From Escherichia coli (lineage in GTDB: Bacteria; Pseudomonadota; Gammaproteobacteria; Enterobacterales; Enterobacteriaceae), in the NCBI RefSeq assembly GCF_044324875.1, contig NZ_CP172185.1: a stretch of DNA of 64,000 nucleotides. One strand, given 5' to 3'. The stretch's first letter is position 1. Every line of letters begins with the position of its first letter. A program made the position numbers and the translations under genes. The notes below the pieces were generated by a model. That model did no database searches, was not told the DNA's origin, and was given only the letters and a program-made list of their open reading frames with translations. This document shows positions 2,123 through 55,248 of this stretch, one piece after another.

Positions 2123-2469
2123 GCACATAGCAGTCATGGAGACAATCTTGTGAAGTCATAGAGTGTCGGGGGAAGGTATTGAAAGTCCCCGACCTCCGAA
2201 GAAAATATGGGCGGCATGATCAGGAAAACACCGTCAGCTCCTGTATAAAGTTATTTGTTGCCACCGTTGCCCAAATCACTCATATCAACAAACGGAATAT
2301 TCAGTTTGAATCCACATTCCATTGTGGGCGTACGAATAGCATCAAGTTTTGCTGTATTGTCAACAACGGATGAAAAGTGGCACTTCCTTGGATTTACCTC
2401 TATATTTCCAGACATCTGTTATCACTTAACCTGTTACTGTCCTTCAACTGCAGGTGATTCAGGGGGGCC

Positions 2470-3115
2470 AGTCTAACCGTTAAGAACACGTTCCCGAGAT
2501 GAGCGTTTCCGTTGTCGCTCATGTAAAACATGTTTTCCAGCTCACTTACTCTTGGTGAAGTCAGGAAACCCGGCGTTAAGGAGCAGATCGTTGAAATGGC
2601 ACATAACGGCGCAGGTGTCCGTGATACCCATGAACACTGAAAATCGGCATCAATACCGTCATACGGACATTAAAAATGTTTTCGCCCCGGCGGATAACAT
2701 CTACGCCAGTCGTTCACGCTGATGTTGCCCTTATCTTTGAAACTTGATGAGCAGTTAAATTTCGTTGGCAGCAAGGCGCAACAACACTGGTCTGCTTACA
2801 ACACTAAATTGCGGTGTGTTGGCTTATTCTTTCGGGCCACGGAATGATGAGACCTGTCGGGAACTGTTAGCCCTGTTGACTTCGTTCTATATCGGCATAG
2901 TGACCAGCAATGACAGGGGCTGCAACGTCAGAGAAGTGACGAAGGAGAAATACCTGACCGGTAAAATATTCACGCAACCTATTGAACTTAACAACCTGCC
3001 CCTCCGCACCCGCATCAAGCGGCTGGCACGTAAAACAATCTGCTTCTCGCGTTCCGTGAAAATCAACGAAAAAGTCATCGGTTCCGTCATTGAAAAGAAC
3101 ATGTTCTACTGATTG
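2470..3115 (+). mobile_element. Degenerate IS1-family element remnant
   Basis: 2765..3112 translation aligns to the C-terminal half of IS1 InsB (...RLARKTICFSRSVKINEKVIGSVIEKNMFY); upstream frame has InsA-like Cys-rich remnants broken by stops. Confidence 0.5.
2765..3112 (+). pseudogene. IS1-family InsB-like transposase, C-terminal fragment
   Basis: Motif-level similarity to IS1 InsB C-terminus; N-terminal half missing. Confidence 0.5.
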
Positions 3116-3411
3116 GAAGCACTACCACATTTTTCATAGAATACCCAAGATCTTAGCGCAGATCAGTTGAAATGTTGGCACCTATGTTACCAATACTACT
3201 CAATGGCTACTACGGCAGTAGGTTTTCGCTTACCTTTTCATACGGGCAATGAAATGAGGATATGCGATAAATTTCAGTCAAAGATACATAAAACAGGCAT
3301 AATGTTATTCAGTGGTGAGCAGTCCGTTCCGGAGACGGAATATCTTTTTAAGGCCGTATATCAGGGTTTTCCCTTGTTATGGTGGCTGAAGGCATGATGA
3401 TGGTGTTTTAA

Positions 3412-4710: not shown

Positions 4711-6912
4711 TCAGAATAATACTGAGTAACTCAGACCAAAGGTGCGGCCCCTGCCTTTGTAGCCGTACAGTGAAGCAGGGCCGTAACCCGGGCTGTAGTA
4801 CAGTGGCGCACGCTGCCCCCAGACAGTGGTGTAGTCACGGTCGAAGAGGTTTTCAATGCTGAAGCTGAGTGTACCCACCGGAAGCTGATAACTGCCAAGC
4901 AAATCGACGATGGTATAGCCATCGACCTTGTAGCCCTGCGCGTCGCTCACGTCAAAGGAGGTGGTGCTCTGCACTCGCAGACTCCACGGGTCCGGTGCCC
5001 AGCCAATGTAGGCTGTCGCTTTTGATGGGCTTGCTGTCTTCACATCGTATTTCTGCCAGGTACCGTTCACTTTCGACTCAGTTTTCAGCACGTTGAAGTT
5101 CACTCCGGTACTCCAGTCAGTATCAGGAATCAGGTAGTCCACCGCACCTTCCACGCCGTAAATACGGCGTTTGTCGTCCACCACACTGATGGTCAGATCT
5201 TTATTCGCCACCACGCTCTTATCAGAAATCGAATAGTAGGCCGCGATTTGGGTGCGCAGATTATTGCCAGTAAAGCGCCAGCCCAGCTCATAAGAATCGA
5301 CTTTCACGCCTTCCAGCTTGCTGTCGCTGACGTTCACACTCTTTGTTAGAGGAAGATGGCCGTTCACTGCAGCACCATAGATGCCGCGACCATAGTATTT
5401 ACCCGGGTCCGGCAGCTCCACGCCCTGGGAGAAGTTGAGCCATGCCTGCTGGCGTTCGGTGATATGCATCAGCAGACCAGCGTTGAACAGGAAGTTGTCG
5501 TAATCGACTGAGCCGCCAGGAATGGCGTCGGCGGATGTAGCCTTCCCGGCGGCAATCTGCCGTTGCTGCGCGTAGCCGATGAAATCATCAATCTTGTTTT
5601 CAGTGTACTGATAGCGTACGCCACCGTTGAGGGTAAAGAGATTATTGATGTCATAGCCTGATTGCAGGAAGACCGCCAGGTTGGTGATGTCATACGACGG
5701 ATAGCGCCCGGTGGTGTAAATCTTCTTGTTGTTCAGCCCTCCGGAAGCGCTTGCTTGAGCCAGGTCGAAGAACATCTGGTTGGAGGTAAAGCGCTCATGA
5801 TCAGCATCCAGCCCCCAGGTGATTTGCCAGCCGTCCATCGGTTTGCTGTTCAGAGTCAGTTTCATGCCGTACTGGTCGGTGTCCTGCTGTGACGAAGAGA
5901 AAGCCGTCACCTGTTTGTTCGCATTTACCGTCGGGAACGGGTAGAATCGCAACGACTCATCGCGGTAGTAAACCTGACCGACCAGCTCCTGTCCCAGGAA
6001 AGCGCTGTCAGAGTACTGCAGGCTGATCAAATGCCGCTCAGTGCCGGGAATACGGTCGGAATTCAGCCCGTTACTGACGAAGGGCGTGCTGGTCCCTCTG
6101 ATGGCAGAGAAGCCTTTCCCGAGATTAAGCCCGTAATCGTCGTCGCCCTGGCTTTTATAGTACTGTGTGATCAACTGAAGCTGCCGGGATTCATCGATGT
6201 TCAACGTTCCAGTTCCCATGATGTCCAGCCGATCGGAGTACTGCAGGCCGGTCTGGGTGTTATCAAGCAGGGTGGCATCGCCGTTACCGTCAAACCAGCC
6301 GCCAAATTTCTGATATGCCACGGAAAGACGTCCGGAGATATGCTCATTTCCGCCGGAGACAGCTCCGGCAATGCGTTCATCGTGATCTTTACTGCTGCTA
6401 AAGCCACTTTTGGTGCCAGCCTCAAACTCCTTCATGGTTTCCGGCTGGCCTTTTTTGCTCACGATGTTGATCAGGCCACCGGTACTGCCGCCGCCATACA
6501 GGGACGTCGCACCGGAGATCACTTCAATATGGTCGATATTAAAAGGATCTATAGAGTCCAGTTGTCGGCTGTCGGTACGTGAAGAGTTGAGACGCACGCC
6601 GTCAACCAGCACGACCAGCGGGCGGCCACGCACATTCATACCGTAGTTGGTGCGGCTCCGGCTGCTGACGTCAAGGCCAGGGATCAGCTGAGCCAGTGCG
6701 TCCTTAAGCTCTTTGCCGCCCTGAATCTGCTGTTCCAGTTCGGCGTTTTCGATAACCCAGGTGGTTTGTGCCATCTCCGCTACGGTGCGATTGCTGCGGT
6801 TGGCAGACACCACGAACGTTTCATCATCGGTTTGTTGAGCGACTGCTGGCGCCATCATGGTAAGAAGCAGTGGGTTGAGAGCCCAAAGCGTATACTTTTT
6901 GCTTATCATCAT
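4711..6912 (-). CDS. iutA: IutA, TonB-dependent ferric aerobactin receptor
   Basis: 733 aa with signal peptide, TonB box region, plug and beta-barrel ending in aromatic residue (…SYSVLF); sits immediately downstream of iucD. Confidence 0.93.
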   Translation of the reverse strand: MMISKKYTLWALNPLLLTMMAPAVAQQTDDETFVVSANRSNRTVAEMAQTTWVIENAELEQQIQGGKELKDALAQLIPGLDVSSRSRTNYGMNVRGRPLVVLVDGVRLNSSRTDSRQLDSIDPFNIDHIEVISGATSLYGGGSTGGLINIVSKKGQPETMKEFEAGTKSGFSSSKDHDERIAGAVSGGNEHISGRLSVAYQKFGGWFDGNGDATLLDNTQTGLQYSDRLDIMGTGTLNIDESRQLQLITQYYKSQGDDDYGLNLGKGFSAIRGTSTPFVSNGLNSDRIPGTERHLISLQYSDSAFLGQELVGQVYYRDESLRFYPFPTVNANKQVTAFSSSQQDTDQYGMKLTLNSKPMDGWQITWGLDADHERFTSNQMFFDLAQASASGGLNNKKIYTTGRYPSYDITNLAVFLQSGYDINNLFTLNGGVRYQYTENKIDDFIGYAQQRQIAAGKATSADAIPGGSVDYDNFLFNAGLLMHITERQQAWLNFSQGVELPDPGKYYGRGIYGAAVNGHLPLTKSVNVSDSKLEGVKVDSYELGWRFTGNNLRTQIAAYYSISDKSVVANKDLTISVVDDKRRIYGVEGAVDYLIPDTDWSTGVNFNVLKTESKVNGTWQKYDVKTASPSKATAYIGWAPDPWSLRVQSTTSFDVSDAQGYKVDGYTIVDLLGSYQLPVGTLSFSIENLFDRDYTTVWGQRAPLYYSPGYGPASLYGYKGRGRTFGLSYSVLF

Positions 6913-50634: not shown

Positions 50635-51117
50635 CTACTTAATGCACTGAGTGCGGATATACTCCTGTGCCCCTTCCAGTTGCTTCTGCATCGTCATCAA
50701 CCGTTCTCTGAGGGTGAAATAATCCCGTTCAGCGGTGTCTGCCAGTCGGGGGCTGGTTGCATTATCCACGCTGGTGGGTCCGGTGGCTTCACGCACGGCT
50801 TCGGAGCAACTGGCATTGACCCGCAGGCGCTTACGGCCAGCGGCAACATCAGCGCGCAGAGTTTCATTTTCAGCTTTCGCATTGGCTAATTCTCTCGAGT
50901 ACTTTGCATCGAGCGCAGCAACATCACGCTGACGCTGCTGCATGTCAGTAATGGTGGCGGTCGCCTGCTTCAGTTCACTGACTTTTTTATCACGCTGTTC
51001 TTTGTAGGCTATGGCGTTATCACGGTAATGATTGACCGCCAACGACAGGCAGACGATGATGCAGATAACCAGAGCATAAATAATCGCGGCGACTCTGCTC
51101 ACTGATCTATCCCCCAA
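50635..51117 (-). CDS. Rz i-spanin
   Basis: 160 aa with N-terminal TM and coiled-coil; near-identical blocks to lambda Rz. Confidence 0.92.
50697..50882 (-). CDS. Rz1 o-spanin lipoprotein, embedded in Rz in +1 frame
   Basis: 61 aa with lipobox and proline-rich core (…[30 protein letters not shown]). Confidence 0.9.
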
Positions 51118-51632
51118 CAGGCTAATGCGCTTTCCTGGTCACGACGAATAACCTGTCCATAGCAGTTATTTGAACGTATGCGGCAATCGCGCCCACCATC
51201 TTTTATCCACCAGCGAATCGCCTCGCATGCGCCCTTACGATCACCGGCATTCAGCCGCTTATAAAACGTCGACGGGAAACACTTACCGGGGCCAATGTTA
51301 TAGGGACAGAATGACGCAATACCCGCTTTCTGTGCTTCGGTCAGTGGAACTTTAATATTGCGCTCCACCCATGCCAGCGCCTTATCACGCTCAATGGCAT
51401 TAACCTGAGCGCATTTTTCCTTCGACAGCTTCATTCCGGGAAAAACGTGTTTTCCATCCACCACCGTGGCACCGCGGCAGATGGTCCATATGCCAGAACC
51501 ATCGCGGTATGCCGTTGTGTGGTTACCCTCTTTTTCGTCCAGAAACTGATCAAGTATCTGAGGAGCAGATGCGCCAGCACCAATCAGCGCCAGAACGGCA
51601 GCCGACAGGCCGTATCTGATTTTTGCGTTCAT
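51099..51632 (-). CDS. SAR endolysin (phage 21-type lysozyme)
   Basis: 177 aa with weakly hydrophobic N-terminal signal-anchor ([16 protein letters not shown]) and lysozyme-like body. Confidence 0.85.
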
Positions 51633-51755
51633 GTATATTTATCAGGATCTAAAGGTTTATAATCCTGGATATATCAGGTATATAATCCAGTACCAGCATG
51701 TCTCATAAACATACCCGTTCAGGAAAACCAAACGACAACAGATGAGGCTTCAGAA

Positions 51756-52133
51756 ATGAACAGTAAAGAAAATTTGCGCAGTAGATTTTTGCAACTAATG
51801 ACAGAAAAAGTTAAATCAGCGCTACTTCCACTTATGGTGGATAATAACGAAGCAACGAGCAGCATCCTTGCAGACCCTTACGGTAAACTCTCGCATAAAA
51901 CGCTGGATATTATTATGAGTGCATTAACACCCCATATGCTTCAACACCTGAAACAAGATATTAACGCATGGGTGAATGAAGAATTGAGCCCCCCCTGTTC
52001 ATGGGACAGACATTATGCATGGCAGCAAAAAATGAGGATTTTCAATTCATTATCACTAAAGTTCAGAGAACCGAAACAGCGTCCCTTCCCTCTGGAATCA
52101 GACAAAAAACAACCTGATCCCACAGGCCCGTAA
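51756..52133 (+). CDS. Hypothetical protein inserted between holin and endolysin on the opposite strand
   Basis: 125 aa ORF with AT-rich upstream region and a downstream hairpin; no recognisable domain. Confidence 0.5.
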   Translation: MNSKENLRSRFLQLMTEKVKSALLPLMVDNNEATSSILADPYGKLSHKTLDIIMSALTPHMLQHLKQDINAWVNEELSPPCSWDRHYAWQQKMRIFNSLSLKFREPKQRPFPLESDKKQPDPTGP

Positions 52134-52213
52134 TATTTTGAATACCGTGATTATTGATATCACAATGAAAGCTATTCCGCACAGTTATGCCCTGCTCCCC
52201 ACGGGGCATGTCT

Positions 52214-52238
52214 CATGAAACGTTCCGGGCGTTTCATG
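52214..52238. terminator. Hairpin between convergent genes (catgaaacg-ttccggg-cgtttcatg)
   Basis: Perfect 9-bp inverted repeat between the 3' ends of the plus-strand ORF and the holin. Confidence 0.4.
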
Positions 52239-52289
52239 TTCCCGGATTTTGTTAAAAGGTATATTATCCCCTCACTCCCGGGATATTCG

Positions 52290-52562
52290 TCATATTTCTT
52301 TTGGTGCCTTTTTCGCAATCTCAGCCACAGCATGTGCCGTAGCCGGAACATTACCGGCATTAGTTCGTTCCAGAATTTCGAGCAATATGCGGGTTCGTTT
52401 TTCCTGCTCCCGTTTGTTAAGGCGATAAGTAAGAACGCCAAGAATGATACTGAACGCCACGCCGATAATAAATCCCCAATCCTGCAGTGACAGGCTGGCA
52501 AAGAACGCAACAAGTCCTGCGCTGCCGTATGCAGCGTTACTGTATCGTTCGTCCATTCTCAT
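52290..52562 (-). CDS. Holin (class II, phage 21 S-like)
   Basis: 90 aa with two TM segments and charged C-terminus, upstream of the endolysin. Confidence 0.7.
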   Translation of the reverse strand: MRMDERYSNAAYGSAGLVAFFASLSLQDWGFIIGVAFSIILGVLTYRLNKREQEKRTRILLEILERTNAGNVPATAHAVAEIAKKAPKEI

Positions 52563-52977
52563 AGTCCCTCACCTCCGCCATCCGACATTACGGACGGCAG
52601 CAAGTCAGAATCTCGTTATAAAAAAGCCGCACGAAGAGGCTGTTTGTTCAGGTATTTTATCCAGTGCGCCGTAAAACCCCGACCTTCAGGGTGTGGAGGA
52701 TGTCAACATCAATAACTGACATTCTGCCCAAAGCTCCCGAAGATTCCCTTTGCACAATTTCACTGACCGGATCTCAGCACAAGCCACAGGGAATGGTCAG
52801 TGTGACGCTCTCTGTGGCCCCTCCTGAAAAGCCCTGTGGTTTAATCGCGACGGACCTGGCGCGGATATGAAGCAGGCCGTGAGCACGAGCCTGGAAATTT
52901 AGTGCCGACTACCGGAATTGAAGTGGTGGCCTGATGGTTACAACTAAACTGTTCTGCCGACTGAGGTAAGTCGGCGC

Positions 52978-53054
52978 TGGACCGCCACCGGGGACTCGAA
53001 CCCCGCACAGTCAGCTTAGAAGGCTGATGCTCTCTCATGATGAGCTAGTGGCGG
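52978..53054 (-). tRNA. tRNA-Arg (anticodon UCU)
   Basis: Folds by eye: 7-bp acceptor (CCGCCAC/GTGGCGG), D arm, anticodon loop CTTCTAA, T arm CGGGG-TTCGAGT-CCCCG. Confidence 0.7.
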
Positions 53055-53055
53055 T

Positions 53056-53131
53056 TGGTGGCCCTTGCTGGATTTGAACCAGCGACCTGGCGATTATGAG
53101 TCGCTCGCTCTCACCACTGAGCTAAAGGGCC
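53056..53131 (-). tRNA. tRNA-Ile2 (anticodon CAU), ileX/ileZ-like
   Basis: GGCCCTTTAGCTCAGTGGTGAGAGCGAGCGACTCATAATCGCCAGGTCGCTGGTTCAAATCCAGCAAGGGCCACCA; very close to E. coli ileX. Confidence 0.8.
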
Positions 53132-53253: not shown

Positions 53254-53967
53254 TTAACGCACTCTGACTACATTAATTTCGAAGTCATCAATCTGCCCGC
53301 TATTAAGTATAACGAATGTAGAACTCCCATTACTGTACGATTTCGACAACACCAGCCTGTCATCATAGCGTGCAAGAACATAATACCAGACACTATCATA
53401 GTGGAGCATCTGATATTCCTTCTTAAACTGGGGTTTGTACCAACCGGCAATAAGTGAAAATCCCCAGAAATAGATCATGAATTCGACCATCATACACTCA
53501 ATCCAGTGATGACGAATAAAAGACATTTCCGAAAAACATTTGACTGAAATAAGTCTTCTTCCTGACCTGACAAAAACCGTAATTATTAAGGCAGCAATAA
53601 CGCATAAAACCAATGCATCTAGCGCAACGCGTCGATGAATTACTGAAAACTCCAGAGCAGGCGGAACAAAAAGCAACAATATCGCCAGAAAAAGTCTGAT
53701 AAAACTCAGATCCTGCACATTATTTTTTTGTTTGATCCCCAGGAAGAAAACAACACCGACTCCCCACCCAATCAGGAATATAACAATGACTGTAACGGCA
53801 TAAAAAAGGCTTCTGGCCACATCATCGACACCAGCCCCAACCACCCACCATGGGAAACCATAATAAAAGGATGTACCCCAGCCATAAAAGTAAGCGCTTC
53901 CCCACCCAAGACATCCCATATAAGCAACAAAAAGTGAAGAGTACCTGAGCAGAGTACTGTCATCCAT
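53254..53967 (-). CDS. Aromatic-rich polytopic membrane protein of unknown function (AT-rich cargo)
   Basis: 237 aa with several TM segments and soluble C-terminal domain; lies between Q-like gene and tRNAs. Confidence 0.55.
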   Translation of the reverse strand: MDDSTLLRYSSLFVAYMGCLGWGSAYFYGWGTSFYYGFPWWVVGAGVDDVARSLFYAVTVIVIFLIGWGVGVVFFLGIKQKNNVQDLSFIRLFLAILLLFVPPALEFSVIHRRVALDALVLCVIAALIITVFVRSGRRLISVKCFSEMSFIRHHWIECMMVEFMIYFWGFSLIAGWYKPQFKKEYQMLHYDSVWYYVLARYDDRLVLSKSYSNGSSTFVILNSGQIDDFEINVVRVR

Positions 53968-54217: not shown

Positions 54218-54892
54218 TTACTGTGAAAATGCCGCCTTTTGTTTTGAACGTGTTCTCGTCACAAACAATAAAGCCTCACTATCCAGCCGGTGAAAAATGT
54301 GTTTCATTGCAATCCAGTGACCAGTAAATGTTTTGGACCAGTTTTTGGCTGTCACTCCCGCCAGTAATGCCAGATCCTGGTATTCGTAACCTTCCTTACC
54401 AAAAATTTCTGCTTTTACTGCCTGCGCCGCCAGCCAGATTAATTTTTTCAGGCGTTCCCGTGTTTTCTCTGCAATTTTCCTGTTGCCACAATGGGCCTTA
54501 AACTCTTCCCATGCCCAGTGGGTTATAGTGACCTGATACTCCCAGCAAATACTCCCGCTGTAACACCACAACAACCAGGCTTTCTGATGTTCTTCAATAG
54601 ACAGAACCGCCCGCCGCCATGATGATGTCGAAAACTCAACCGGGCTGACCAGGGCAATTGATGAGCCTTTCGCCAGCGATTGTTTTCCCGGGATTGGTGG
54701 ATTATCCCGCGTTATCATTTTTCCAGTCACTTCATCGCGGTACCGGATTTTTTTACGCCTGTAACGCCCTGTATCGAACATGGCATTCTCCTGCCAGGCT
54801 TCAAGCTGACCTTTTGTTGCCCCACTCAAATCAGCGGTGGCGATAATGAGCTGCTCACGCACAAACTGTAAATACTGGTTATTCATGCGCAC
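54218..54892 (-). CDS. Late-gene antiterminator Q-like protein (Qin QuuQ-type)
   Basis: 224 aa directly downstream of rusA and upstream of the terminator/lysis region; call is by position and size. Confidence 0.5.
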   Translation of the reverse strand: MRMNNQYLQFVREQLIIATADLSGATKGQLEAWQENAMFDTGRYRRKKIRYRDEVTGKMITRDNPPIPGKQSLAKGSSIALVSPVEFSTSSWRRAVLSIEEHQKAWLLWCYSGSICWEYQVTITHWAWEEFKAHCGNRKIAEKTRERLKKLIWLAAQAVKAEIFGKEGYEYQDLALLAGVTAKNWSKTFTGHWIAMKHIFHRLDSEALLFVTRTRSKQKAAFSQ

Positions 54893-55248
54893 TCCAGTTC
54901 TGTGATTTTTATCCCCAGCCGCCCACCAGGAACGGGCTGACCGCGCACAATATTAATTTCATCAAACTGCTCGTCGTCTATGAATAGTCCGGCATGCGTC
55001 AGTGCATCCAGTGGTGCCTTCAGGATATTGTCCAGGTCGCGGCGGCGCTTATCCGGTGGCTCTGCAATAATTTTTATTGCCAGCCTTCCGGACAGGTTTA
55101 ATTTCAACCGCTGTTGGCGAACAATTAACGCCACATCCCGGCGATAACGTTCACCGACTTTTGATACAAAATATGTGCTGCCACGACGTCGCCAGTAAGT
55201 ATTCACCGTTGGCGGGTAAGGCAAAACAAATTCTATGTGTTCAGTCAT
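54883..55248 (-). CDS. rusA: RusA Holliday-junction resolvase
   Basis: 121 aa; RRRDLDN motif and overall match to RusA. Confidence 0.85.
   Translation of the reverse strand: MTEHIEFVLPYPPTVNTYWRRRGSTYFVSKVGERYRRDVALIVRQQRLKLNLSGRLAIKIIAEPPDKRRRDLDNILKAPLDALTHAGLFIDDEQFDEINIVRGQPVPGGRLGIKITELECA

Follow-up and report, generated by a model that had tools for sequence, protein, structure and literature searches.

The locus and its lysis genes

What is a gene on the opposite strand doing between the holin and endolysin genes of an Escherichia coli prophage? The question arises from a 64,000-nucleotide stretch of E. coli contig NZ_CP172185.1 (assembly GCF_044324875.1), hereafter the window. A sequence-only reading had noticed that S and R lie about 650 bp apart here, with a plus-strand ORF between them, and had suggested that this ORF might interfere with or regulate lysis. 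The surrounding genes are the late genes of a lambdoid E. coli prophage and are encoded on the minus strand (Table 1). The layout described by that reading is borne out by the ORF list, in which the gap between S and R measures 657 bp (51633–52289) and the ORF within it runs on the plus strand. Its premise that S and R normally adjoin also holds: S overlaps R in phage PhiR46_1, which carries the same holin family as the window, and in other relatives the two are parted by same-strand genes only.

The sequence-only reading had allowed that the true holin start might lie elsewhere, the gap then being coding sequence of the cassette itself. This does not apply. The S product, named 'phage holin family protein' by PGAP, shares its start (M-R/K-M) and its end with the 90-aa holin of PhiR46_1, and the gap is therefore not concealed holin coding sequence. 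The translation of R contains a Gly/Ala-rich, SAR-like N-terminal segment and an E-8-D-5-T motif, and is 86–95% identical to the lysozyme found beside nearly all relatives of the plus-strand gene.

Two further observations concern the late genes. The holin begins M-R-M (52554–52562; M-K-M in PhiR46_1), a dual-start motif like that of lambda S, which would yield holin and antiholin forms. The 'moron site' between Q and S, where stx is located in Stx phages, is here taken up by the gene for the 237-aa membrane protein and two tRNA genes, assigned by ARAGORN as tRNA-Met(CAT) and tRNA-Arg(TCT); PGAP names the CAT tRNA of a related prophage tRNA-Ile.

Table 1. Features of the S–R locus in the window and, where a locus handle is given, of related loci.
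Feature	Coordinates	Strand	Evidence or remark
RusA gene	54883–55248	minus	late region
Q-like antiterminator gene	54218–54892	minus	late region; PHROG 304
Gene for 237-aa multi-pass membrane protein	53254–53967	minus	late region; PHROG 1521
Two tRNA genes	52978–53131	minus	late region, 3′ of the 237-aa membrane protein gene
Holin S, 90 aa	52290–52562	minus	PHROG 1350 'holin', full length, E 3e-29
Spacer, plus-strand gene stop to holin stop	52134–52289		two adjacent hairpins
PHROG 1853 family gene, 125 aa, ATG start	51756–52133	plus	ORF list, PHROG match
104-aa core of this ORF	51756–52067	plus	family alignment
21-aa read-through extension of this ORF	52068–52133	plus	family stop after ...KFR absent
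GAGG	51744–51747	plus	8 nt 5′ of ATG
TATAAT, perfect	51681–51686	plus	about 70 nt 5′ of ATG; conserved in O157-type and L004 relatives
Second TATAAT, window-specific	51658–51663	plus	sequence
Divergent intergenic region, endolysin start to plus-strand gene	51633–51755		123 bp, 36.6% G+C
Endolysin R, 177 aa, T4-lysozyme type	51099–51632	minus	PHROG 7 'endolysin', E 5.5e-62
Rz spanin, downstream end of lysis cassette	50635–51117	minus	PHROG 13 Rz-like spanin, E 2e-76
Rz1, embedded in Rz	50697–50882	minus	lipoprotein-like ORF in ORF list
PHROG 1085 gene	L009 3292–4098 (minus); L004 3924–4592; L015 4338–4895; L096 3501–4289	late strand	
Upstream stem-loop of the second type	L009 2891–2929; L074 3924–3961; L015 3925–3963; L012 1333–1373; L096 (minus) about 4705–4667		

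The ORF is a protein gene under purifying selection

Homology search and structure prediction had been proposed as checks, and both gave clear results. The translation matches the PHROG 1853 family (E 4.3e-41), with residues 1–102 on profile positions 57–158 of 159. Full-length members of this family are 104–106 aa long and align without indels down to 48% identity (eight relatives aligned). A search of 5.8 billion proteins returned 15 clusters at 90% identity, every one an E. coli hypothetical protein, and a profile search of 1.84 billion representatives returned only 20 clusters at 50% identity; AFDB contributes members from Shigella and Salmonella. Among the five loci compared, dN/dS was 0.15–0.32 with dS from 0.5 to saturation, and 0.19 between the window and O157 copies. 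The changes fall mostly at third codon positions, which are close to saturated. This bias, together with the low dN/dS, identifies the plus-strand protein, rather than an RNA or the complementary strand, as the target of selection.

AlphaFold2 models the protein as a compact five-helix bundle (pLDDT 89.9, pTM 0.81), for which no informative structural match was found. The model is all-helical and soluble (GRAVY −0.4 to −0.7), in keeping with an apparent lack of a signal peptide or transmembrane segment. We also agree that the protein has no recognisable domain, since neither Pfam nor NCBIfam gave a match; there was likewise no PDB sequence match. PADLOC defence models did not match it at E up to 0.1, nor did they match the PHROG 1085 partner described below, and Rfam contained no RNA family for the window region or the related loci. 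A full-text literature search found no paper on the PHROG 1853 family or on an opposite-strand gene between S and R, and surveys of the Stx-phage lysis region do not mention it (PMC8136144, PMC10462455). We conclude that the ORF is a genuine protein gene, whose soluble product of about 104 aa, predicted to be a five-helix bundle, is under purifying selection.

The gene is a frequent occupant of a variable slot

Of 5,426 complete E. coli genomes, 673 (about 12%) have a DNA relative at the same place (about 80% identity over 51645–52066). The arrangement is thus not unusual, and the gene is a common add-on rather than an oddity; only four of 50,697 phage records carry it. In O157:H7 strain FRIK2455 its neighbours, with the gene again on the opposite strand between them, are a class II holin and the same lysozyme. 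It is orf6 of the Stx2-converting phage 86 and is also found in an Stx2a phage, each with a complete lysis cassette (S, R and Rz–Rz1 around orf6 in phage 86). Phage 86 is inducible with orf6 inside this complete cassette, so that the gene is compatible with normal lysis. We then considered a set of 89 loci drawn from IMG/VR and elsewhere. The gene faces against the late operon in all 89 and is directly divergent from the lysozyme gene in 86. It accompanies at least four holin families (Phage_holin_2_1, 2_3, 3_1 and PHROG 1350) and several lysozyme types, and sometimes lies upstream of the holin, which counts against a specific regulator of one holin or endolysin.

The holin–endolysin junction of E. 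coli lambdoid prophages is a recognized variable slot. A YdfR/DUF1327 gene occupies it on the late strand in mEp460 and Tritos. In phage Evi, a 98-aa opposite-strand ORF (PHROG 25324; L007 2761–3057) occupies the corresponding place and diverges from the same lysozyme gene, which suggests that the site repeatedly takes opposite-strand insertions. The Evi ORF was rejected as a homologue of the plus-strand gene (hhalign probability 0.1%).

Small RNAs are also encoded near the lysis genes of such prophages. The known prophage anti-sRNAs and Pas sRNAs lie between nanS-p and S (PMC4104026; bioRxiv 10.64898/2026.05.13.724894). We rejected the identity of the present locus with either, as those map upstream of S and the codon pattern here is protein-like. 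In several related Salmonella and E. coli prophages, HicA/HicB pairs are found between Q and the lysis region (L015 6195–6833; L096–L101 at about 2237–3367), and L015 has in addition two copies of the STnc100 sRNA (5532–6062).

A convergent PHROG 1085 gene is a recurrent but not an obligate neighbour

The 3′ end of the plus-strand gene abuts or overlaps that of a late-strand PHROG 1085 gene in 35 of the 89 loci, and all the deeply divergent lineages sampled, from E. coli, Salmonella and a metagenome contig, show this adjacency. It persists across lineages that are just 30–50% identical, and the gap to the convergent gene in lineages other than that of the window is 9–16 bp, or the two overlap. 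In three lineages the position of the gene pair is upstream of the holin, not in the S–R interval. The uncharacterized PHROG 1085 proteins, which are limited to E. coli and Salmonella prophages, share at the C-terminus a conserved domain of some 110 aa with H-x-H, GRCM, DNPPFK and YLKG motifs, and have N-termini of DUF1327/YdfR or coiled-coil type. They gave no PDB, NCBIfam or PADLOC match, and their AlphaFold2 model is poor (pLDDT 62). This recurrent convergent neighbour hints at a functional link between the two genes.

Each gene is nevertheless found without the other. The partner is missing in 52 of the 89 loci that have the plus-strand gene, the latter is missing in 37 of 85 partner-centred loci, and PHROG 1085 is kept alone in many E. 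coli and Salmonella prophages; the two are therefore not an obligate pair. In the O157 type a degenerate PHROG 1085 remnant is detectable (E 1e-4), while the window has no trace of the partner. Within the partner-less O157-type clade the ORF was intact in 48 of 48 copies, with 10 synonymous and 4 conservative non-synonymous polymorphisms, from which we conclude that the plus-strand gene is maintained by itself.

Loci of the order S–partner–R that lack the gene have a 42-bp spacer before R (L127 3433–3474, L157 3355–3396). This spacer retains the final codons and stop of the missing gene (reverse complement ...GGCAACAGATAA), which suggests, from the sequence, that the gene was once there and was deleted exactly between short GATT(T)ATC repeats.

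Upstream region, spacer and hairpins

The region upstream of the ORF had been described as AT-rich, and at 36.6% G+C, against 51.8% for the whole window, it is. A putative promoter lies at the conserved TATAAT box (51681–51686). On the plus strand, a consensus scan found no full sigma-70 promoter upstream of the ORF, because no good −35 element is present in 51633–51755, and no canonical terminator downstream of it. In TUM9803, the sole relative compared base by base, GC stands where the window has AT at 51662–51663; this AT creates the second perfect TATAAT, which precedes the conserved box by 23 bp.

An 18-mer, TCAGGTAT(A/T)T(A/T)ATCCAGT, occurs twice with two mismatches. The copy at 51674–51691 includes the putative −10 box, and that at 52648–52665, which was found in this prophage lineage only, is about 90 nt upstream of the holin start. 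No equivalent pair arose in 100 shuffles of the window, and weaker copies are found at 51651–51668 and 52255–52272. The repeat may be the scar of a recombination event or a regulatory box common to both sites.

Other lineages (phage 86, L010, L074, L015, L012 and Salmonella L096) have a second type of upstream region. In place of the TATAAT box, a conserved stem-loop, CGCCAGTG...CACTGGCG, followed by a U-run, lies about 60 nt before the ATG. Its variants form G–U wobbles on the plus strand only, that is, in the sense of the gene. No Rfam family matches the stem-loop, which the window does not contain; it may be a 5′-UTR structure, an attenuator or a small-RNA terminator.

The sequence 3′ of the ORF varies between lineages, and the spacer at 52134–52289 is specific to this prophage lineage: among 5,426 E. 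coli genomes only 19 contain it. A search of the spacer for vestiges of the PHROG 1085 gene or of an earlier endolysin gave nothing. The perfect 9-bp hairpin pointed out in the sequence-only reading is exact, CATGAAACG (52214–52222) pairing with CGTTTCATG (52230–52238) across a 7-nt loop, and the window contains only seven perfect 9-bp hairpins of this type. As plus-strand RNA it would form 11 pairs (−11.9 kcal/mol), and a second hairpin (52186–52210; −12.9 kcal/mol) lies immediately 5′ of it. No canonical U-run follows either hairpin, and the folding of a 176-nt spacer sequence showed no significant gain over shuffled sequences (z −1.0 and −1.75).

A lost stop codon lengthens the window copy

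In the window the stop codon of the family, after ...KFR, is replaced by GAA. Because of this loss, reading continues for 21 residues, which form the C-terminal extension. The exact 125-aa protein is encoded on 488 public contigs (UniProt A0A2Y0YWC2, 'uncharacterized') and in 19 of 19 matching complete genomes. Across 19 complete E. coli genomes, many of them chicken-derived, the region from S to R is 99.5–99.7% identical. In one genome, that of strain TUM9803, the PGAP annotation of the locus is a pseudogene ('missing C-terminus'). The ORF contains two homopolymers, C7 at 51989–51995 and A6 at 52027–52032, and public assemblies include frameshifted variants at the C7 run (P0004, P0005) and at the A6 run (P0002); these could be sequencing errors or could mark slippage-prone sites. 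The window copy is thus a partner-less variant with a 21-aa extension, and it is probably still functional.

What is the gene for?

We think it somewhat probable that the ORF is an accessory 'moron' gene of E. coli, Shigella and Salmonella lambdoid prophages, an independent transcription unit on the opposite strand within the lysis slot. Genes that adjoin in relatives are here parted by it, as the overlap of S and R in PhiR46_1 shows; similarly, 42 bp separate the PHROG 1085 gene from R in L127 and L157, and the gene is located between them in phage 86. Its composition is distinct, the ORF core having 39% G+C compared with 52% for R and 48% for the holin gene. As for signals of its own, the TATAAT box is shared by three lineages with no recognizable −35, and the two downstream hairpins are without a U-run. 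In the lysogen, with the late operon silent, the gene would be transcribed from its own promoter, with the −10 box at 51681–51686. Following induction, polymerase starting at pR′, modified by Q and resistant to terminators, would cross the 657-bp gap and its hairpins and so allow expression of R and Rz, and this head-on transcription would shut the plus-strand gene down. Expression of the gene in the lysogen is probable by analogy with bor, and the same analogy suggests its later silencing. The product would be a small protein of the cytoplasm, acting in binding or regulation to the advantage of the lysogen or the prophage, and not part of the lysis machinery. A plain moron reading leaves the link with PHROG 1085 unexplained.

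This bears on the proposal with which we began, that the gene might interfere with or regulate lysis. As a regulator or 'safety catch', its product could modulate the pinholin/SAR-endolysin pathway or the PHROG 1085/YdfR-type slot protein, for example by neutralizing leaky lysis functions in the lysogen or by blocking lysis by superinfecting lambdoid phages. The gene is always in or beside a lysis cassette, and it abuts PHROG 1085, itself in the S–R or pre-S slot, in 35 of 89 loci and in all deeply divergent lineages; we regard this recurrent partner as the best lead for a role in lysis control. However, the gene opposes the late operon and is therefore not co-expressed with S and R, its protein has no transmembrane segment, the holins beside it come from at least four families and the lysozymes are of several types, and the partner is missing from 52 of 89 loci and occurs without the gene in 37 of 85. 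Co-transcription, membrane association and specificity for one holin or endolysin, by which an antiholin or lysis regulator would be recognized, are replaced here by an opposite-strand gene, a soluble bundle and several holins. A lysis regulator is thus rather unlikely. We give little credence to the more particular version in which the PHROG 1853 protein, with or without PHROG 1085, is expressed in the lysogen as a cytoplasmic 'safety catch' or exclusion factor against premature or foreign lysis and is turned off by head-on late transcription. If the partner were instead one half of a toxin–antitoxin or immunity pair, the window would hold an orphan antitoxin. Such a pair might be expected from an adjacency that persists between lineages at 30–50% identity and from orphan copies that stay intact, but the layout is convergent and not operonic, neither protein matches a PADLOC model, and the partner persists alone in many E. 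coli and Salmonella prophages. We reject this reading as very improbable because the gene and its partner separate freely in both directions.

The remaining alternatives deny the protein a main role, either in the window or altogether. The window copy might be a decaying remnant, a pseudogene whose 3′ end was corrupted after the loss of the partner, as the lost stop codon and 21-aa extension, the missing PHROG 1085 gene, the PGAP annotation in TUM9803 and the frameshifts at C7 and A6 in P0002, P0004 and P0005 would allow. Yet the 104-aa core is fully intact, the exact 125-aa sequence recurs on 488 contigs and in every matching complete genome, dN/dS relative to the O157 copy is 0.19, and purifying selection continues in the other partner-less lineage. 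Decay is possible, and as an account of this copy it is weak and improbable. A role at the RNA level, with the protein secondary, would involve transcriptional interference or antisense pairing with the S–R late mRNA or the 3′ end of the holin message. The plus-strand transcript would meet the holin gene head-on, no canonical terminator follows the ORF, and in other lineages the convergent gene is 9–16 bp away or overlaps. Against this stand the protein-like substitutions, with third positions nearly saturated and dN/dS well below 1, the lack of an Rfam match, and the DNA 3′ of the ORF, which is unconserved between lineages; we consider it quite unlikely that RNA is the principal product.

As it stands the finding is of small import, in that the occupant of the S–R slot is a widespread, catalogued and uncharacterized gene. 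It merits a modest follow-up because the family is present in about 12% of complete E. coli genomes, including prophages of EHEC O157:H7 and an Stx2 phage, and because it has a confidently predicted fold without an informative match and is kept by selection even where it stands alone. Should the protein be shown to act on lysis or on superinfecting phages, it would be a new lysogen-side regulator of a well-studied pathway that also releases Shiga toxin.

Comparison with known systems

Like the plus-strand gene, the antiholins lambda S107 and P1 LydB and the releasin of phage Mu are encoded within lysis cassettes. S107 and LydB are read from the strand of the lysis genes and expressed together with them, and they either associate with the membrane or are specific for a single holin or endolysin. 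Mu releasin is likewise encoded on the lysis-gene strand, co-expressed, and membrane-associated or holin/endolysin-specific (PMC9239132). The plus-strand gene shares none of these traits of strand, co-expression, membrane association or specificity. The YdfR/DUF1327 genes (ydfR of Qin, gp55 of mEp460, and that of Tritos) occupy the same slot next to the same lysozyme, but their family is unrelated, they share the strand of the late operon, and their expression probably goes together with that of the lysis genes. The Evi protein (VUF53393.1) is a singleton in the phage collection.

A closer likeness in kind is that to bor (and lom) of lambda, morons that the prophage expresses. The likeness is that of a small opposite-strand gene by the lysis genes, with its own regulatory region, which is putative in the window, and a differing base composition. 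bor is found on the opposite strand beside Rz in related loci, and is reportedly expressed in lambda lysogens (Barondess and Beckwith 1990). Its position is after Rz, whereas the plus-strand gene is between S and R; moreover, Bor is an outer-membrane lipoprotein with a signal peptide, in contrast to the predicted soluble helical bundle, to which it is related neither in sequence nor in fold.

The nearest counterparts are the homologues themselves, orf6 of phage 86 (YP_794053.1) and WP_000138558.1 of O157:H7 (PHROG 1853), which are 48–80% identical with the same core length and are likewise encoded on the opposite strand, divergent from a 177-aa lysozyme gene within the lysis cassette. Compared with phage 86, the window copy has no PHROG 1085/YdfR-type gene beside it, is accompanied by another holin family, and carries the 21-aa extension.
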